IMG/VR virus record: IMGVR_UViG_2636416131_000003
Location: 1 to 11,853 of that record
Strand: one strand, 5' to 3'
Source of the DNA: a virus
Taxonomy: Duplodnaviria > Heunggongvirae > Uroviricota > Caudoviricetes
DNA: 11,853 nt
Shown here: one piece after another, positions 1 through 11,853 of the stretch
Layout: each line of letters starts with the position of its first letter
Position numbering within the stretch: the stretch's first letter is position 1
Program-made: the position numbers and the translations under genes
The notes under the pieces: generated by a model
Told to the model about the DNA's origin: nothing
The model's database searches: none
Seen by the model: the letters and a program-made list of their open reading frames with translations, nothing else

Positions 1-3832
<3,832 letters not shown>

Positions 3833-3858
<26 letters not shown>

Positions 3859-4378
3859 TCAGCAACCCCGGTATCAGTTCATCCAGCGCGGCTGCTTTGT
3901 TCATGGCTTTGATGATATCCCGTTTCAGGAAATCAACATGTCGGTTTTCCAGTTCCGGAAAACGCCGCTGCACCGACAGGGGGATCCCGTCGAGAATACT
4001 GGCAATTTCACCTGCGATCCGCGACAGCACGAAAGTACAGAATGCGGTTTCCACCACTTCAGCGGAGTCTCTGGCATTTTTCAGCTCCTGTGCGTCGGCC
4101 TGCGCACGCGTAAGTCGATGGCGTTCGTACTCAATAGTCCCTGGCTGGAGATCTGTCTCGCTGGCCTGCCGCAGTTCTTCAACTTCCCGGCGCAGCTTTT
4201 CGTTCTCAATTTCAGCATCCCTTTCGGCATACCATTTTATGACGGCGGCAGAATCATAAAGCACCTCATTACCCTTGCCACCGCCTCGCAGAACGGGCAT
4301 TCCCTGCTCCTGCCAGTTCTGAATGGTACGGATACTCGCACCGAAAATATCAGCCAGCTGCTTTTTGTTGACTTCCAT
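3833..4378 (-). CDS. nu1: Terminase small subunit Nu1 (181 aa)
   Basis: MEVNKKQLADIFGASIRTIQNWQEQGMPVLRGGGKGNEVLYDSAAVIKWYAERDAEIENEKLRREVEELRQ... matches lambda Nu1 (the DLP12 equivalent is NohD) in sequence and length. The 3' end overlaps the A start, as in lambda. Confidence 0.93.
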
Positions 4379-4379
4379 T

Positions 4380-4600
4380 GTTCATTCCACGGACAAAAAC
4401 AGAGAAAGGAAACGACAGAGGCCAAAAAGCTCGCTTTCAGCACCTGTCGTTTCCTTTCTTTTCAGAGGGTATTTTAAATAAAAACATTAAGTTATGACGA
4501 AGAAGAACGGAAACGCCTTAAACCGGAAAATTTTCATAAATAGCGAAAACCCGCGAGGTCGCCGCCCCGTAACCTGTCGGATCGCCGGAAAGGACCCGAA
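4380..4600 (-). other. cos: cos site (cosB, cosN, cosQ); the 12-nt cohesive-end sequence cosN is at 4556-4567
   Basis: The + strand at 4556-4567 is AGGTCGCCGCCC, the reverse complement of the lambda cohesive end GGGCGGCGACCT. Flanking sequence matches the lambda left end (CGCGGGTTTTCGCTATTTATGAAAATTTTCCGG...) and right end (...CCGACAGGTTACG) as I recall them. It lies immediately upstream of Nu1. Confidence 0.85.
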
Positions 4601-4766
4601 AAATGATAATAATTATCATCTACATATCACAACGTGCATCTACGCCATCAAACCACGTCAAATAATCAATTATGACGCAGGTATCGTATTAATTGATCTG
4701 CATCAACTTAACGTAAAAACAACTTCAGACAATACAAATCAGCAACACTGAATACGGGGCAACCTC

Positions 4767-4961
4767 ATGTCAACTAAGAACAGAACCCGCAGAACAACAA
4801 CCCGCAACATCCGCTTTCCTAACCAAATGATTGAACAAATTAACATCGCTCTTGAGCAAAAAGGGTCTGGGAATTTCTCAGCCTGGGTCATTGAAGCCTG
4901 CCGTCGGAGACTAACGTCAGAAAAGAGAGCATATACATCAATCCAAAGTGATGATGAATAA
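4767..4961 (+). CDS. Small hypothetical protein (64 aa), predicted ribbon-helix-helix (Arc/MetJ/CopG-like) DNA-binding fold
   Basis: ORF MSTKNRTRRTTTRNIRFPNQMIEQINIALEQKGSGNFSAWVIEACRRRLTSEKRAYTSIQSDDE has a basic N-terminus. The segment IRFPNQMIEQINIALEQKGSGNFSAWVIEACRRRL aligns by eye with the Arc/Mnt pattern (R-x-P, hydrophobic helix, G-x-S-x-N, second helix). I believe a similar small ORF exists near the right end of lambda, but I cannot confirm that. The ribosome-binding site is weak. Confidence 0.5.
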   Translation: MSTKNRTRRTTTRNIRFPNQMIEQINIALEQKGSGNFSAWVIEACRRRLTSEKRAYTSIQSDDE

Positions 4962-5320
4962 ACATCCCGGTTTCTTCCACCATCGCACCGGAAAAGCGAC
5001 TATGAGGGTAACCCTGCGTCTGTCAGCACAGTAAAACCCGGTGTGCATCGTTTTTGATTATTCCCGCACACTCACGCAGAAGGAATTCCCCGTCGGGCTA
5101 CGGTCATGGTTAATGCGGGAATACGGCGACGATACAGCGCAGCTAAAAGGGTAATGGACAGAAAGAGCGGTTTATTTCATTCCACAGGATTCTGAGTGCC
5201 CCCCTCCTCCAATAGGCTGAGCATCCACCTATATAGTTTTAATTTTCATCAATCCATTTAACTATCGTTTAATTGTTGTCACATAGGATTCTGCCGTTTT
5301 TAACAATGCAGGATAATAAG

Positions 5321-5614
5321 ATGAAAAAAATGTTGTTTTCTGCCGCTCTGGCAATGCTTATTACAGGATGTGCTCAACAGACGTTTACTGTTGGAAACAA
5401 ACCGACAGCAGTAACACCAAAGGAAACCATCACCCATCACTTCTTCGTTTCGGGAATTGGACAGGAGAAAACTGTTGATGCAGCCAAAATTTGTGGCGGC
5501 GCAGAAAATGTTGTTAAAACAGAAACCCAGCAAACATTCGTAAATGGATTGCTCGGTTTTATTACTTTAGGCATTTATACTCCGCTGGAAGCGCGTGTGT
5601 ATTGCTCACAATAA
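5321..5614 (+). CDS. bor: Bor lipoprotein (serum-resistance protein, 97 aa)
   Basis: MKKMLFSAALAMLITGCAQQTFTVGNKPTAVTPKETITHHFFVSGIGQEKTVDAAKICGGAENVVKTETQQTFVNGLLGFITLGIYTPLEARVYCSQ matches lambda Bor/DLP12 BorD as I recall it. It has a lipobox (ITGC) and is oriented opposite to the lysis genes, as in lambda. The ORF-track start at 5273 is an N-terminal extension. Confidence 0.9.
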   Translation: MKKMLFSAALAMLITGCAQQTFTVGNKPTAVTPKETITHHFFVSGIGQEKTVDAAKICGGAENVVKTETQQTFVNGLLGFITLGIYTPLEARVYCSQ

Positions 5615-5645
5615 TTGCATGAGTTGCCCATCGATATGGGCAGCT

Positions 5646-6107
5646 CTATCTGCACTGCTCATTAATATACTTCTGGGCTCCTTCCAGTTGTTTTTGCATA
5701 GTGATCAGCCTCTCTCTGAGGGTGAAATAATCCCGTTCAGCGGTGTCTGCCAGTCGGGGGGAGGCTGCATTATCCACGCCGGAGGCGGTGGTGGCTTCAC
5801 GCACTGACTGACAGACTGCTTTGATGTGCAACCGACGACGACCAGCGGCAACATCATCACGCAGAGCATCATTTTCAGCTTTCGCATCAGCTAACTCCTT
5901 CGTGTATTTTGCATCGAGCGCAGCAACATCACGCTGACGCATCTGCATGTCAGTAATTGCCGCGTTCGCCAGCTTCAGTTCTCTGGCATTTTTGTCGCGC
6001 TGGGCTTTGTAGGTAATGGCGTTATCACGGTAATGATTAACAGCCCATGACAGGCCGACGATGATGCAGATAACCAGAGCGGAGATAATCGCGGTTACTC
6101 TGTTCAT
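5646..6107 (-). CDS. rz: Rz inner-membrane spanin (153 aa)
   Basis: [61 protein letters not shown]... matches lambda Rz (DLP12 RzpD) as I recall it. The start overlaps the endolysin stop (ATGA). Confidence 0.9.
5705..5887 (-). CDS. rz1: Rz1 outer-membrane lipoprotein spanin (60 aa), embedded in the +1 frame of Rz
   Basis: [60 protein letters not shown] has a lipobox (VVGC) and a proline-rich core. The fully embedded arrangement is as in lambda Rz/Rz1. Confidence 0.9.
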
Positions 6108-6601
6108 TGCTGACCCCACAAACAGATTTCACGCTCAATCTCACGACGAGTCATGAGACCTTTCCATTGCTTACCGCCAGCATATGTCCAGCGACGTAGC
6201 TGATCACATGCGCCTTTGATATCGCCCTGGTTTATTTTGCGAAGAAGCGTCGATGTTCTGAAATTGCCAGCACCCACGTTGTAAACGAATGAGTAAAGAG
6301 CGCCGCGCATTGTTTCCGGTATATCGACTTTGATGTACGGGTTAATTTGTCTGGCGACCGTGGCAAGGTCTTTATTCAGGAGGGCTTTGCATTCTGCTTT
6401 GGTATACGTTTTACCGAGCATGATGTCTTTTCCTGTATGCCCGTGACATACAGTCCATACACCAACAATATCTTTGTATGGTATGTAGCTGACACCTTCC
6501 AGACCATCGTTACCACTTGGGCCAGTAATTAACACTGATGCTATAGCAATTGCTCCGCCACCAATAGCAGCAGCAACGGCTTTTCGTAATGATGGAGGCA
6601 T
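6104..6601 (-). CDS. rrrD: SAR (signal-arrest-release) endolysin, T4-lysozyme-family muramidase, phage-21 R / DLP12 RrrD type (165 aa)
   Basis: [59 protein letters not shown]... has a Gly/Ala-rich weakly hydrophobic N-terminal SAR domain followed by a lysozyme catalytic region. It matches K-12 RrrD as I recall it and is not the lambda R transglycosylase. Confidence 0.88.
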
Positions 6602-6816
6602 TATTCACCTCTCGCAGCCTTGCGCTTATCTTCTTTAATCTTGAAATAAAGGTTTGTCAGGTACGTCAGCAGGCCAAATACCAGGCTACCCAGCACACCT
6701 ATTGCTGCCCACTGTGAGGGCGTGACTTTATCGAGCAGCTGTAAAAACCAGTAACCGGCACTACCTGCTGAGGTGCCATAGGCGACACCCGTTGTTAACT
6801 TATCCATGGATTTCAT
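6601..6816 (-). CDS. essD: Pinholin, phage-21 S21 / DLP12 EssD type (71 aa), with dual-start motif MKSM
   Basis: [71 protein letters not shown] has two TM segments and Met1/Met4 dual starts. A GAGGTG Shine-Dalgarno sits just upstream of 6816. The stop overlaps the R start (TAATG). The ORF-track start at 6861 is probably an artefactual extension. Confidence 0.85.
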
Positions 6817-6899
6817 AACCCCACCTCGCAGACAAAGCGGGTGTAAATTGAGGGAATACAACGTATCGCAAAAAAGCAGAAACGTAACAGACTCGGAGT

Positions 6900-7404
6900 C
6901 AGTGAATAACTCAGGTATTGAGTTATCAGCTAATATCGAGACTCAAAAAATGGAAAAACCAGCTCGACGGCGGGTTTAAGCTGTGTGACGAAGTAACCAC
7001 TCTTAACAGCATAACCAATTTTTTACGTACGTAAACCACTGAATGATATTTATGAGAATGCTACCGAGTGTTCAAAACACCACCACAAATACATAAGAAA
7101 ACCTCAACAAATAACCAATAAATAATTTCAGACGTTATTTTTAGTTGATTTAAATTAAACTGCCGAATTATAGAACCTCCATAAATAACAACCATTAATA
7201 TAAATTAGCTAATAGGTTTATTTTTGTTCAAATAAGAGCCATAAATAGGTTTCGATAGAAAAAGTTCAGATAAAAATAGAGATCTACTTCACAAATTAAA
7301 TGAGAAACTAAAACTTACATCTTGAAATAATCACATTGATTAGATGAATATTTATCGCGCAGTGACATCATTTTTTAATAATAGTTCAAAAAAAAGGGCT
7401 CACG
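6900..7404 (+). promoter_or_regulatory. AT-rich upstream regulatory region of the porin gene (promoter not precisely mapped)
   Basis: About 500 bp of very AT-rich sequence lies immediately 5' of the porin ATG, with no ORF. It contains a perfect 14-bp palindrome TTTACGTACGTAAA at 7021-7034. This is typical of H-NS or OmpR-regulated porin promoters (inference). Confidence 0.4.
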
Positions 7405-8502
7405 ATGAAAAAATTAACAGTGGCAATTTCTGCTGTAGCTGCATCAGTACTGATGGCGATGTCTGCTCAGGCAGCTGAAATTTATAATAAAGACAGTAAC
7501 AAGCTGGATCTGTACGGGAAAGTTAATGCCAAGCACTACTTCTCCTCTAATGATGCAGATGATGGTGATACTACTTATGCCCGTCTTGGCTTCAAAGGTG
7601 AAACCCAAATCAACGATCAACTGACTGGTTTCGGTCAGTGGGAATATGAATTCAAAGGCAACCGCGCTGAATCTCAAGGTTCCTCCAAAGACAAAACCCG
7701 TCTTGCATTTGCAGGCCTGAAATTCGGTGACTACGGCTCAATCGATTACGGCCGTAACTACGGTGTAGCATACGACATCGGTGCGTGGACTGACGTTCTG
7801 CCAGAATTCGGTGGCGATACCTGGACCCAAACAGATGTGTTCATGACTGGTCGCACCACTGGTGTTGCAACCTATCGTAACAACGACTTCTTTGGTCTGG
7901 TTGATGGTCTGAACTTTGCTGCTCAGTACCAAGGCAAAAACGATCGTAGCGATTTCGATAACTACACTGAAGGTAACGGTGATGGCTTCGGTTTCTCTGC
8001 TACCTATGAATACGAAGGATTCGGTATCGGTGCAACTTATGCGAAATCTGATCGTACCGACACTCAAGTTAATGCAGGGAAAGTTCTTCCTGAAGTATTT
8101 GCTTCCGGTAAAAATGCAGAAGTTTGGGCCGCAGGTCTGAAATATGACGCTAACAACATTTACCTGGCCACTACCTATTCTGAAACCCAGAATATGACTG
8201 TATTTGCTGATCACTTCGTTGCTAATAAAGCCCAAAACTTCGAAGCTGTTGCACAATATCAGTTCGATTTCGGTCTGCGTCCGTCCGTTGCTTACCTGCA
8301 ATCTAAAGGTAAAGATCTTGGAGTATGGGGCGATCAGGACTTAGTCAAATATGTTGATGTAGGTGCAACCTATTACTTCAACAAAAATATGTCTACTTTC
8401 GTTGATTACAAAATCAACCTGCTTGACAAAAATGACTTCACTAAAGCACTCGGTGTAAGCACTGATGACATCGTTGCTGTAGGTCTGGTTTACCAGTTCT
8501 AA
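7405..8502 (+). CDS. nmpC: Outer-membrane general porin, NmpC/OmpD/Lc family (365 aa precursor), apparently intact
   Basis: [46 protein letters not shown]... has a signal peptide with an AQA-A cleavage site, porin motifs ([31 protein letters not shown]) and the C-terminal ...GLVYQF with terminal Phe. Its position between Q and S, antisense to the late genes, is as for nmpC in DLP12. There is no IS5 interruption here. Confidence 0.9.
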
Positions 8503-8510
8503 TCTGATTA

Positions 8511-8550
8511 CGAAAAAGATATGTTGCGGGAGGCGTTGCCTCCCCAACAT
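8511..8550 (-). terminator. Putative intrinsic terminator on the minus strand (candidate tR'-like terminator downstream of Q)
   Basis: The minus strand reads ATGTTGGGGAGGCAACGCCTCCCGCAACAT followed by ATCTTTTTCG. This is a GC-rich stem (GGGAGGC/GCCTCCC plus flanking pairs) followed by a T5 run, about 150 nt downstream of the Q stop. Confidence 0.45.
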
Positions 8551-8640
8551 ATAAGTGGCTCCCTCAAGCCACTTCCTTTAGAAGCACAACCTTGCTTCTA
8601 ACTATATAAACCTTCTGTTATATATTACCCTTTATTTTTG

Positions 8641-8667
8641 GGGGCGTCTCAACGCCCCATTTTTAAT
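8641..8667 (+). terminator. Rho-independent terminator of the porin transcript
   Basis: GGGGCGTCTCAACGCCCC (6-bp GC stem) is followed by ATTTTTAATAATTTTT on the + strand. It lies about 140 nt after the porin stop, following three smaller hairpins. Confidence 0.6.
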
Positions 8668-8691
8668 AATTTTTAGTAAACAATTGGCATA

Positions 8692-9075
8692 TTAATTAGA
8701 GTTATTAACAACGATATCCATCTCTAACCGGATATCTAATGCCATTAACATCCCTTCAATTATGCCCTCAGCCTTCTGTAACCTTTTCCCGATATAACCA
8801 TCAGAGCAGCAATGCTTACCTGCCAGTGACATGAATGTCATACCGACTACATAATAATCTACTAATAAATCGTGCAAATCGCTGTTGTTCTTTTTCAGAC
8901 GGGCCATGCACCCGCAAATAATCATCGCGTCATCGTCACAACATTGCGGGCGAGATTTTACTTTTGAAGTAATTAATCCCTTAAAACCGGCGGCAATGGA
9001 CGACCAGGTCACATCTTCATGATTATTAGCCGCCCACGCTCCCCAACGCTCAAGAACCATCTGAATATCACGCAT
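8692..9075 (-). CDS. quuD: Late-gene antiterminator Q (phage 82/21-type, DLP12 QuuD-like, 127 aa)
   Basis: [62 protein letters not shown]... is Cys-rich (zinc-binding). It sits immediately after rusA-ylcG and upstream of the lysis cassette, and matches K-12 QuuD as I recall it. The start could alternatively be 9090 (MWSKL...). Confidence 0.75.
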
Positions 9076-9160
9076 CAACTTACTCCACAAAAATCAGACC
9101 AGAACGCCAATTACAAGCAAAAATCAACAAAACAGTATTAGTTGATTGTTATCTCTGACT

Positions 9161-9301
9161 TCATACTCCTGCTCCTGTCAGGGTTTTGGCGTAATTCTTC
9201 AGTATTCGGTAATCGGTCAAAACAGAACCGGGGAAACGATATAAGCGCAGATGCCCCCAGCGGTGGCGAAGAAGTTCTGCCATATAAAACTCAAACATCA
9301 T
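9161..9301 (-). CDS. ylcG: Small protein YlcG (46 aa)
   Basis: Hand translation of the minus strand gives [46 protein letters not shown]. It is below the ORF-track size cut-off. The start overlaps the rusA stop. Length and position match ylcG between rusA and quuD in DLP12. Confidence 0.6.
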
Positions 9302-9660
9302 TCATTCCCCATTTCGGTGATGGTCAGTTCCAGCCTCCCACCTTTGGTAACAGGCATCTTCACAACGCGGTAATCAACGACCTGAGCATCATCCAGCCAG
9401 AAACCTGCTTTAGTGAGTGCGTCAAAAGCGGCTTTTTGCAGATTATCCAGGTCACGGCGACGGCGATCCGGCATGTGGCACTCAATGCGGATTTTCACAG
9501 GCATAGCCAGGCCGATATCCAGCATTGCGTTTTTAATGATTCGGGCGACGTTATCGCGGTATGCCTGCCCCTCTGCGCTGACGTGCGTGCGCCCGCGATT
9601 ATGGCGGTAATAGCGATTATTGCTCGGAGGCCAGGGTAATGTGATGCTGTAGGTATTCAC
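9298..9660 (-). CDS. rusA: Holliday-junction resolvase RusA (120 aa), GTG start
   Basis: [120 protein letters not shown] matches E. coli RusA as I recall it. The first codon at 9660-9658 is GTG, overlapping the ybcO stop (GTGA). Confidence 0.92.
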
Positions 9661-9946
9661 GCCTTAATAACCCCCTCTTTCAGCCAGATAACCTGTGTTC
9701 TCGCCATACCTTCCAGCGCGCATTCTTTTGCATATGCAGCATCGACAAAATGTGTGCGGCGGTCGATTTCGTCGTGGCAGGCAGAACATGCAATGGTGGC
9801 AATCAGGTCTGGCGGTTTGGTACCGGTGCCGCACAATCCAGTCAGCCGGATATGTGCCAGTACAGACGTTTCAGGGTTGCCATTACATACGCAGGGATTC
9901 TTACCTGGCATTCCCGACTACGCGCTGCTTTTCTCAAATCAGCCAT
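9657..9946 (-). pseudogene. ybcO: ybcO-like nin-region Cys/His-rich protein (DUF1364-like putative nuclease), apparently disrupted by a 1-nt frameshift
   Basis: A strong RBS (AAGGAGG) precedes the ATG at 9946 and gives MADLRKAARSRECQVRIP, which then runs out of frame and stops after 34 codons. The downstream frame (ORF-track 9657-9911) carries the remainder: ...VCNGNPETSVLAHIRLTGLCGTGTKPPDLIATIACSACHDEIDRR...VIKA. Joining the two with one restored nucleotide near 9892 gives a 96-aa protein. Confidence 0.65.
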
Positions 9947-10109
9947 GATTCCTCCTTGCTGCCAGTCGCAACCATTTTTTATCAACCAGGCTGGCGGTAT
10001 ATCCGAGCAGTGTTGGTATTTCGGAAGGCTTCAGCTCCGGTTTACGCTTACGACGATCTGGTACTCTGTAGATGTGTCCGTTCATGACACGAATAAGCGG
10101 TGTAGCCAT
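9939..10109 (-). CDS. ninE: NinE protein (56 aa)
   Basis: Hand translation gives MATPLIRVMNGHIYRVPDRRKRKPELKPSEIPTLLGYTASLVDKKWLRLAARRNHG, matching lambdoid NinE as I recall it. The ATG overlaps the ybcN stop, and the 3' end overlaps the ybcO RBS and start. Confidence 0.85.
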   Translation of the reverse strand: MATPLIRVMNGHIYRVPDRRKRKPELKPSEIPTLLGYTASLVDKKWLRLAARRNHG

Positions 10110-10564
10110 TACGCCTCCTGCTTGTCGCGGAGCAGCTGGAACTCGCAGCTCTGCGGAATAGTCAGGTGGCAGCCAATATTCACCGCCCAGGCTTCAACCT
10201 TACACAGGAAGACATACATCTCTCCGGTATCAAGATCGGAGGTATGGCGTAACGACTGGACGGTGGTGACCTCGCCGGACACGACATCTACACGGTCTTT
10301 GCTTTCGTAGCCGAGATAGGTGTGCTTCATCGCGTCTTTGACCCACTCAGGCGTAGCGAAGGTCTTGCCGCGGGCGATGAGATATTCGCTGATCTCCGTG
10401 TACCACATGTGGCTGAGCGCGTTCTGCGACAGGCTGCGCTTCTCGCGCCACGGCTTAACCTGCAGGCGTAAGCATTGCCCGGCATCCAGCAATGGCTGAA
10501 TCTGCTGGCCGATGGCCGCGAAGTTACCGCGATGGAGTTTGATGCCGTCTACTGGCAGAGTCAT
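10109..10564 (-). CDS. ybcN: NinB-like (lambda Orf-family) recombination protein / YbcN-like DNA base-flipping protein (151 aa)
   Basis: MTLPVDGIKLHRGNFAAIGQQIQPLLDAGQCLRLQVKPWREKRSLSQNALSHMWYTEISEYL... has the S-x-x-Q-N motif and length typical of NinB. A GGGAGG Shine-Dalgarno lies 6 nt upstream of the ATG. The position upstream of ninE matches DLP12 ybcN. Confidence 0.75.
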   Translation of the reverse strand: MTLPVDGIKLHRGNFAAIGQQIQPLLDAGQCLRLQVKPWREKRSLSQNALSHMWYTEISEYLIARGKTFATPEWVKDAMKHTYLGYESKDRVDVVSGEVTTVQSLRHTSDLDTGEMYVFLCKVEAWAVNIGCHLTIPQSCEFQLLRDKQEA

Positions 10565-10828
10565 ACGGCCTCCCTAACGGAAACCGCAGAATGCAGAAAA
10601 TCGCAGGTGCATTTCTGCATCTGTGACAAGGTGATGAGTTCAGATTGTGGTCGCATTTAAGTCCCCTTAAATGCGCAGAAGTCACCGGAGTTGTTCAGGC
10701 TCCGATGAGAGGATTATGGCGGATTGATTACGATAAATCAAAACTATCTTGAAGCCAAAACAGTGATCTTCGCTTTAAAAACCTTGTATACTTTCACCTA
10801 ATCACAGCCAGAACTATGGATCTAACCA

Positions 10829-11206
10829 ATGACCAACAAAGAAAACAAAGATAAATATATTAACAAGTTCAAGAAAGAGCTTTCAAAATATATACAACCA
10901 ACTGCTGGAGTGGACATTCAATTATTTAACTCTAAGGATGGTGGTGGTGTAATTAAAGCCACTTTGAATAGAAGTGGAAAAAGAAAATCATCAATTGCAG
11001 GTAATTTTACTAAATTAGGTGAGGCAATTACCTCGAGTGGGCAGAGGGTTTTTGGTGGTGATCTATCAAATGTAAATTTTTACGGAACAAATACGATTTT
11101 TGATGGAGATACAATATTTTTAATTAAATCACCTGATTCAGAGGAGTGGTCATCACAAAAAGCTTCCAAAGACGTAGAGGGCATCGTATTTGGAGGGAAA
11201 AAATGA
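10829..11206 (+). CDS. Hypothetical protein (125 aa), Lys- and Gly-rich, predicted soluble; first gene of an AT-rich two-gene cassette
   Basis: ORF MTNKENKDKYINKFKKELSKYIQPTAGVDIQLFNSKDGGGVIKATLNRSGKRK...GIVFGGKK is in an AT-rich region (roughly one-third G+C by eye, against more than 50% in flanking phage genes). It is on the strand opposite to the surrounding nin-region genes. A TATACT -10-like hexamer lies at 10787-10792. I do not recognise the family. Confidence 0.6.
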   Translation: MTNKENKDKYINKFKKELSKYIQPTAGVDIQLFNSKDGGGVIKATLNRSGKRKSSIAGNFTKLGEAITSSGQRVFGGDLSNVNFYGTNTIFDGDTIFLIKSPDSEEWSSQKASKDVEGIVFGGKK

Positions 11207-11631
11207 TTAACATTACTACTAAGGATGGCACTCAAGTCAGTGGTGAAGTAAGAGATCTAGTAATTCTTCTTGAAACTGATGGAAAAACGGTGTCTGATTA
11301 TTTGCAGCCAATCCCTCCCAAAAAAGATACACACTGGAGCATGATTTTCATTCCGGTAGCAATTTATATACTACTTAATCTTGTATACATTATTGCTCAC
11401 CCATTATTTCCTGAAAAATATCTAAAAACATCAACATCTATATTTCTATTCATTTCCTTCATATTAAGTGCAATAGTAGCATATTTTGTTTTCCATAAAC
11501 ATAAATCTGCCACTCTATCCATATGCAGCTTAGTGTTCTTAGTGTTAATTGTAGGTGCTAACGTAGGGTTTATCAGTTACAGCGACCTAACACAAAAAGC
11601 GACGCAAAAATTAGATAGTTTGTCTAAATAA
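11203..11631 (+). CDS. Hypothetical membrane protein (142 aa): soluble N-terminal region of about 55 aa plus three predicted transmembrane helices; translationally coupled to the upstream ORF
   Basis: The ATG at 11203 overlaps the stop of the upstream ORF (ATGA). The protein MINITTKDGTQVSGEVRDLVILLETDGKTVSDYLQPIPPKKDTHWSMIFIPVAIYILLNLVYIIAHPLF...TSTSIFLFISFILSAIVAYFVFHKHKSATLSICSLVFLVLIVGANVGFISYSD... has three hydrophobic stretches of about 20-23 aa. It shares the AT-rich composition of the upstream ORF. The ORF-track start at 11146 is an upstream extension in the same frame. Confidence 0.6.
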   Translation: MINITTKDGTQVSGEVRDLVILLETDGKTVSDYLQPIPPKKDTHWSMIFIPVAIYILLNLVYIIAHPLFPEKYLKTSTSIFLFISFILSAIVAYFVFHKHKSATLSICSLVFLVLIVGANVGFISYSDLTQKATQKLDSLSK

Positions 11632-11709
11632 TTATGTTGCCATGCGAAGTATGCATGGCTGCATGTCTGCCTTCCATTTAAAATGGGCTAAGACCTATAA
11701 CCCTAAATA

Positions 11710-11853
11710 TTATTCTTTATTATCTTCTTTACCACTTCGCGCCATCCCGTTCGACTTGTTGCGGTTGTACTTCGCCTGAAGCTGCTGGATTGGCGTCGGG
11801 CCATGCTCGGCAGCCGGTGCTGCAATCGCCCGGCGCACAGGCGGTACTGGTTT
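11710..11853 (-). CDS. 3' end of an unidentified minus-strand gene entering from beyond the window (possibly an early-region or replication gene); frame uncertain
   Basis: GC-rich sequence at the window end is open in all three minus-strand frames for about 130 nt. One frame ends ...QLQAKYNRNKSNGMARSGKEDNKE with a stop at 11712-11710. Composition resembles the phage backbone, not the AT-rich island. I cannot assign a family. Confidence 0.3.
   Translation of the reverse strand, partial: KPVPPVRRAIAAPAAEHGPTPIQQLQAKYNRNKSNGMARSGKEDNKE

Follow-up and report, generated by a model that had tools for sequence, protein, structure and literature searches.

The low-G+C island between the nin region and the replication gene P of a lambdoid prophage carries a pair of small overlapping genes, orfA and orfB, which profile searches indicate to be a widespread and previously undescribed two-gene module (A/B; A ~125 aa, B ~125-142 aa) and not an enterobacterial orphan. 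The island is located in an 11,853-nt stretch of viral DNA (Caudoviricetes; positions 1 to 11,853 of the IMG/VR record IMGVR_UViG_2636416131_000003), hereafter called the window, which forms the right arm of a lambdoid, DLP12-like Escherichia coli prophage. We propose that A/B is a mobile module of a sensor and a membrane effector that acts against phages by abortive infection, a function that we infer and to which we assign a probability of roughly 0.45. A/B is a reasonable candidate for a defence system because it often resides on mobile elements and is sometimes found beside known anti-phage genes.

The first gene, orfA (10829-11206, + strand; WP_000182282.1), delimited from the list of open reading frames (ORFs) and profile searches, encodes a soluble, basic protein of 125 aa (pI 9.5, 12% Gly) with zero hydrophobic segments. 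The second, orfB (ATG at 11203, end at 11631, + strand; WP_000608370.1), delimited from the sequence, RefSeq and the alignment of its homologues, encodes a predicted inner-membrane protein of 142 aa. The orfA stop overlaps the orfB start in an ATGA at 11203-11206, from which translational coupling is predicted. An alternative, longer form of orfB (161 aa) would start from the GTG at 11146; the 142-aa form is favoured because a GGAGGG Shine-Dalgarno sequence lies 7 nt upstream of the ATG, RefSeq annotates 142 aa, and every homologue aligns from that Met. Both genes are under purifying selection, with nonsynonymous and synonymous diversities (pN and pS) among enterobacterial variants of 0.12-0.20 and 0.57-0.85, respectively, and dN/dS of ~0.07-0.13. 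Since pN is far below pS and homologues of ~30% identity occur in other phyla, orfA and orfB must be real genes. An initial annotation of this DNA, made from its letters, had described two + strand ORFs of these sizes and coordinates opposite to the early operon, coupled by the ATGA, with a basic, Gly-rich first product lacking any recognised motif and a second product consisting of a cytosolic N-terminal region and three transmembrane (TM) helices; this description holds in all these respects.

A full HMMER scan with an orfA alignment delineated an A family of 111 representative clusters, most of them of 120-135 aa, with the motifs YINNFRR, GGAxxEF and QxAFGGNLxGFxFxGTNxIxExxRIxLIKDxxxxEWSxxAAxxDV. 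K100 is invariant in an alignment of 82 A sequences, and Y10, G39, F84, G86, T87, W107 and D115 are almost invariant. The AlphaFold2 (AF2) model of A, of low confidence (pLDDT 58), has the order alpha-beta-beta-alpha-beta-beta-alpha. In one cluster (P0104, 447 aa) no B gene follows and the A domain instead forms one polypeptide with an HNH nuclease domain (Pfam E 1.3e-12), as is typical where a sensor domain is combined with different, interchangeable effectors.

The B protein of the window consists of a soluble N-terminus of 44 aa followed by three hydrophobic segments (~45-66, 78-97 and 104-124), and its AF2 model, also of low confidence (pLDDT 68), comprises a beta-hairpin and a helix and then three long helices. 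The best conserved part of B is the N-terminal mini-domain (35-44 aa), with the motif MK[IFL]G..EG[TS]PEE[IV]..[FL]...[ND]G[LF]....[YF] among the B partners, which also have in common the three TM helices and a basic RFK loop (HKHK in orfB of the window) between TM2 and TM3. Within the EGTPEE-type motif a Gly and a Glu (G8 and E12 in alignment numbering) are invariant. The topology of B is predicted to be N-in, C-out; because the R/K-F-K loop between TM2 and TM3 is basic and Lys/Arg residues precede TM1, the positive-inside rule places this loop and the N-terminal domain of B probably on the cytoplasmic side, together with A, and the C-terminal tail outside. At one metagenomic or genomic locus of the set (L052, 3198-4523) the B homologue runs into an extra region of ~310 aa without a Pfam or PADLOC match, which is either a true fusion, the added domain then lying outside the cytoplasm, or read-through from assembly or sequencing; it was not used as evidence.

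The gene that follows A matches the B profile, which was built from the orfB-like partners of A genes, at 68 loci, and at 52 of these the two genes overlap by 4 nt. The window proteins match the local family profiles with E 6.6e-39 (A) and E 5.1e-47 (B), and the orfB family of the window aligns with the distant partners (hhalign 97.4%, E 1.6e-11, 117 columns). Thirteen loci contain an A without a B-profile match: in five the contig end cuts the locus (L014, L024, L042, L046, L077), one holds a short A fragment only (L055), two carry the A-HNH fusion (L056, L057) and in five (L079-L083) the small partner downstream of A is more divergent, its soluble N-terminus being followed by 2-3 TM helices. 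A recurrent third gene beside A/B was sought among the loci and none was found. From the partner profile matches, the overlaps and the absence of a recurrent third gene it therefore follows that A/B is an ancient, obligate and translationally coupled pair. In two IMG/VR contigs (L064 and L072) the distances from A to the best B start are 82 and 256 nt, as opposed to the usual 4-nt overlap, and these may be frameshifted or decaying copies of the cassette.

Word-seeded searches recovered enterobacterial relatives only; the profile search reached other phyla. The loci derive from Deltaproteobacteria, Acidobacteriota, Nitrosomonas, other Beta- and Gammaproteobacteria and many metagenomes, and a neighbouring gene with a type IX secretion system tail suggests that one further source, a metagenome-assembled genome (MAG), belongs to the Bacteroidota. 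The question raised at the outset, i.e., whether the pair co-occurs in other prophages, can thus be answered positively for prophages and elsewhere, with profile-matched pairs ranging from enterobacteria to Acidobacteriota. The A/B pair is present in 17 IMG/VR viral contigs. Tblastn and blastn searches of GenBank phages found neither gene, with only the flank upstream of ybcN giving a match, and a search for related loci with a narrower alignment gave hits in genomes and metagenomes and none in viral contigs.

The island itself (10680-11720) has a G+C content of 0.349; the value is 0.484 over the whole window and 0.541 in 9298-10564, where the adjacent nin genes lie, and the flanks of the cassette have 0.49-0.52. 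This agrees with the ~1 kb low-G+C island first noticed between a NinB-like gene and an early-region gene, the latter of which can now be named as P. On the left, outside the cassette, lies the ybcN/NinB-like gene (10109-10564, - strand), the first gene of the nin region, which matches Pfam NinB with E 3.2e-5 and whose product RefSeq, in a prophage of 99.7% identity, assigns to the YbcN family. On the right, also outside the cassette, lies the 3' end of the gene for replication protein P (11710-11853, - strand), cut by the end of the window and identified from the RefSeq annotation of that same prophage (L001). The orfA and orfB genes are encoded on the + strand between these two, opposite to the early operon. 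Between ybcN and the cassette extends a conserved region (10565-10743) common to DLP12-like and lambdoid phages. The left border is at ~10743, where the homology to cassette-less DLP12-like prophages ends (query position 620-635 of 10109-11853, in >3,000 E. coli genomes), and the right border is the P stop at ~11710. Lambdoid phages, phage 82 (record X92588) and HK639 among them, have a counterpart of the segment 10680-10745, which in the phage 82 record is annotated with a regulator-binding site and with -35/-10 signals; right where this conserved promoter region upstream of ybcN stops, the left junction of the island is found.

The whole island was found in only 46 of 5,426 complete E. coli genomes, as near-identical copies that are without exception located between P and ybcN. 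In other prophages the P/ybcN interval is filled differently: with ren, emrE and ybcK in an O157:H7 prophage, with a gene for a 238-aa protein without family match in another related prophage, and with ren and several other genes and pseudogenes in an O104:H4 prophage. In Klebsiella and Enterobacter prophages a 65-92% identical pair separates the first nin gene (NinB or DUF1367) from the replication module, again on the opposite strand, and these prophages differ in their replication proteins (DnaB-type, DnaC-type or lambda O/P), Q proteins and terminases. The genes on either side of the cassette thus adjoin each other in relatives or enclose other cargo, and the base composition of the cassette is deviant, as is expected for a moron. 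The island is a self-contained two-gene accessory cassette that was horizontally acquired and occupies a variable cargo slot; the deviant G+C, the left junction and the varying contents of the slot among prophages uphold the earlier suggestion of a horizontally acquired moron.

In one enterobacterial prophage (L007, 5665-7348) the same slot contains, beside A/B, two further genes that Pfam weakly relates to a pore-forming colicin and to colicin immunity, with a DndB-like gene and an HNH gene on the other side. Because this colicin-like pair is situated next to the A/B cassette, the replication/nin slot can stack several conflict-type cargos. In a Klebsiella-type prophage with the cassette (L005, 13685-14446) a gene for a KilA-N/BstA_C protein (BstA-like defence) adjoins the repressor; if A/B is a defence system, prophages of this kind carry two.

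The cassette also brings along short noncoding elements. Its 5' leader (10744-10828, + strand) contains a -10-like TATACT at 10787-10792 and a weak GGA Shine-Dalgarno sequence (10818-10820) ahead of orfA. The TATACT had been pointed out before and is indeed present, though it is without a good -35 and a consensus promoter scan gave no call. Cassettes of 76% and 67% identity in other prophages have a -10-like TATAGT and GGA at the same positions, i.e., ~45 nt of leader with the -10-like hexamer and the GGA travels with the cassette. Directly 3' of the orfB stop codon a stem-loop (11634-11664, + strand; GCCATGCG...CGCATGGC) with the core GCCATGC/GCATGGC (11639-11659) moves together with the cassette, and a downstream alignment revealed that it is kept in diverged cassettes. 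The fold of 11625-11720 has an energy of -23.2 kcal/mol (z -2.6). The hairpin has no U-tract and could be a 3' end, a stabiliser, or a terminator without U-tract. It is followed by an AT-rich spacer with a second small hairpin (11665-11709), which includes a terminator-like site on the - strand (11703-11685), just past gene P. An Rfam scan of the island revealed no known RNA.

The genomic neighbourhoods of A/B are diverse. The G+C content of the module is below that of its flanks in 22 of the 25 non-redundant loci. The enterobacterial loci have prophage settings, as do three further loci near lysis genes (L011, L012 and L078), and in one (L080) the pair is cargo of an integrative and conjugative element (ICE). 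In other settings the pair forms small islets beside the housekeeping genes valS, tyrS and ligA. In E. coli, defence systems reside mainly in prophages and other mobile elements, which carry them in hotspots (PMC9519451). We counted defence-type neighbours within 5 kb in the distinct non-enterobacterial contexts (n=26); known defence-type genes occur in 6 of these, on contigs that are short and without a matched control. In a deltaproteobacterial MAG (L018), brxA and brxB of BREX (2883-4147) start 112 nt after the A/B pair, and the contig breaks off before any further BREX genes. At L015 a homologue of PD-Lambda-3_B (E 6e-83) lies directly downstream, among toxin-antitoxin (TA) genes, and at L052 a gene for a HEC-01A/AriA-like ATPase lies ~0.5 kb upstream, with one small ORF intervening. 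The remaining three contexts contain, within the 5 kb, genes for an OLD/AriA/GajA-like ATPase (L036), a mad3-like ATPase (L021) and a C5-methyltransferase (L038). A DUF4238 gene near the ICE-borne pair (precomputed Pfam) was considered as a defence neighbour and dropped, as it had no PADLOC model match.

Searches against known families were negative for both proteins. Neither the A nor the B family has a significant match in Pfam, NCBIfam, PADLOC v2 or PDB sequence profiles, and consequently no strong homology to a characterised non-defence family, which would have spoken against a role in defence, was found in these databases. In PHROGs the two proteins fall in families of unknown function only (phrog_18061 and phrog_16940). 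Signals of RexA/RexB, holins, the SieA motif or Panacea/DUF4065 were sought and none was found, and the Pfam, NCBIfam and PDB sequence scans of both proteins detected no transporter, enzyme, DNA-binding or known antitoxin domain. Structural searches with the AF2 models, including those against viral proteins, yielded no significant match, a negative result that is weak because the underlying models are of low confidence. The literature on the accessions, on a defence hotspot in the replication/nin region and on lambdoid morons contained nothing on this pair or slot; the prophage-defence systems of Brenes & Laub (2025) were outside this coverage.

If A/B acts in abortive infection, A and the N-terminal domain of B would form a complex at the inner membrane, in which A would sense or regulate and B would be the effector. 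During infection, the A-B complex would be altered by a phage-derived cue, upon which B would change the permeability or the energisation of the inner membrane and thereby stop the infection; the outcome would be protection of the lysogen population and of the resident prophage. That A and B interact, that they have these two roles and that the module counters phages is inferred, and the evidence for a function in defence, exclusion or toxicity is circumstantial. We also consider it possible, with slightly lower expectation than even odds would warrant, that A/B constitutes an undescribed cross-phylum defence system, composed of a new small cytosolic sensor fold (also occurring fused to HNH) and a new three-TM effector and spread by prophages, ICEs and mini-islets, in which case the replication/nin slot would be a hotspot comparable to those of P2 and P4.

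A comparison with lambda RexAB is instructive. In both cases a prophage carries a two-gene unit of a cytosolic protein and a small polytopic inner-membrane protein of ~140 aa, and the proposed logic, a sensor triggering a membrane effector, is the same. However, A/B has no similarity to the RexA and RexB models of Pfam and PADLOC (E<=1), also when distant members are considered. RexB has four TM helices, whereas B has three and a conserved cytosolic N-terminal domain; RexA is 279 aa and A only 125 aa; and rex is situated in the immunity region, whereas A/B occupies the replication/nin slot. The likeness to RexB is, therefore, one of architecture only, and each testable feature of RexAB membership is lacking. 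Of the interpretation originally offered for this island, the moron, the coupled pair and the TM architecture hold, and the pairing has turned out to be obligate and ancient and the contexts to be mobile and partly defence-associated, but the specific link to RexB is not supported. Two-gene systems with TM effectors (Kiwa and the TM variants of CBASS, Pycsar and retrons) are comparable in that they combine a soluble component with a membrane effector, are carried on mobile elements and occasionally in defence islands, and have exchangeable effectors, which for A would be the TM protein B or the HNH fusion. A/B differs from these in that its close and distant members have no homology to any PADLOC v2 family, in being much smaller, and in having no nucleotide-cyclase, DUF4868 or reverse-transcriptase partner. 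With phage morons, as defined from lambdoid phages such as HK97 and HK022, the cassette shares the insertion, as a putative extra transcription unit, between genes that adjoin each other in relatives, the deviant composition and the opposite orientation; its promoter-like and terminator-like elements, if active, would be a further likeness. The term moron covers the genomic status of the cassette and not its function.

Several results weigh against A/B as an anti-phage module. No PADLOC-DB v2.0.0 family matches A or B, among close or distant members (window proteins at E<=1); ten distant A/B members gave nothing but one insignificant match to ZorA (E 0.027). A PADLOC test of 20 single neighbour genes, most of them directly adjacent, resulted in one defence match. 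Because of this 1/20, the short contigs and the lack of a matched control, the defence association in 6 of the 26 contexts should be regarded as moderate and suggestive. Furthermore, the candidate promoter amounts to a -10-like hexamer, and the HNH fusion is known from one cluster on two contigs of 1.6 kb (L056 and L057).

That the genes are small and overlap, with the gene for the soluble protein preceding, also brings to mind a TA or addiction pair, in which B would be a membrane-damaging toxin and A a protein antitoxin, made in a fixed ratio through the coupling, and which would stabilise the prophages, ICEs and islets that carry it. The spread of the pair as an autonomous low-G+C islet across many contexts and the TA genes that adjoin it at L015 and L008 fit this explanation, which overlaps with that of abortive infection. 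However, A is devoid of a DNA-binding or known antitoxin domain, and for neither protein was the known antitoxin fold or known toxin family of a type II TA system recognised in Pfam, NCBIfam or PDB sequences. The A-HNH fusion also suits a sensor domain better than an antitoxin. In E. coli CV839-06 (L085, locus 530-2109) an IS1A has reduced orfA to a 49-aa stub, a natural knock-out in which orfB is intact; the strain is viable, which counts mildly against a constitutively toxic B; this evidence is weak because the IS1 also cuts orfB off from its promoter (polarity). We therefore regard an addiction function as unlikely, albeit deserving attention. Superinfection exclusion, by which B, aided by A, would block the entry of incoming phage DNA without killing of the cell, as P22 SieA or T4 Imm do, seems less probable still. 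A prophage moron coding for a small inner-membrane protein with three TM helices would be in line with it: P22 SieA is a prophage-encoded inner-membrane protein of similar size (162-164 aa) with likewise three predicted TM helices (PMC10883804). SieA is, however, sufficient alone and has the conserved cytoplasmic motif FxRYPxEAxxFNK (PMC10883804), whereas B lacks this motif and always occurs with its obligate cytosolic partner A. Moreover, conservation in B is highest in a cytosolic and not in a periplasmic part, and many copies of the module are found outside prophages, beside housekeeping, BREX or ICE genes.

A last explanation is that A/B has an accessory membrane function unrelated to phages, e.g., in envelope stress, in the response to small molecules or in lysogenic conversion, and merely hitch-hikes on mobile elements. 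The absence of defence model matches is in agreement with this, as are the neighbours, most of which are unannotated or housekeeping genes (valS, tyrS, ligA), and the non-defence cargo, such as emrE, in the same slot elsewhere. No transporter or enzyme signature was found in either protein, however, and the strict coupling, the low G+C content, the HNH variant and the neighbouring BREX, OLD-type ATPase and PD-Lambda-3_B genes suit conflict systems better, so that we attribute a rather small chance to a function of this type. A sensor and membrane effector acting in abortive infection continues to be the interpretation that we prefer.

Strains A7, F11 and M-17 are natural lysogens. The 99.7% identical copy of strain A7 (L001) is integrated beside tRNA-Arg and intD and contains, on the strand that corresponds to the minus strand of the window, O, P, ybcN, ninE, ybcO, rusA, ylcG, quuD, the lysis genes, nohD/terminase and portal genes, and on the other strand an ompC-like porin gene and iss/bor. 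In the window, the OmpC-like porin gene (7405-8502, + strand; 365 aa; named ompC in the near-identical prophage) is a second moron on the opposite strand, between Q and the lysis genes, and the region upstream of it (7050-7350) is extremely AT-rich (G+C 0.26-0.30). The gene for an iss/bor-type serum-resistance lipoprotein (5321-5614, + strand; 97 aa), located between the lysis cassette and the terminase genes, is another classic + strand moron. At the portal end, positions 186-308 on the - strand are a full-length match to Rfam isrC, an Hfq-binding small RNA, with 150 bits against a gathering score of 39.

Even if A/B is not a defence system, it represents a conserved mobile membrane module that in prophages of clinical E. 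coli, Klebsiella and Enterobacter is annotated as 'hypothetical protein'. Given its small size, the strict two-gene organisation and the natural swap of effectors (TM protein or HNH), the control of a membrane effector by a minimal sensor would be easy to study with it. If the module does protect against phages, the known repertoire would gain a small defence family of ~800 bp that is made of two unannotated protein folds, and the junction between the replication and nin regions of lambdoid prophages would, like the P2 and P4 hotspots before it, merit mining for cargo.

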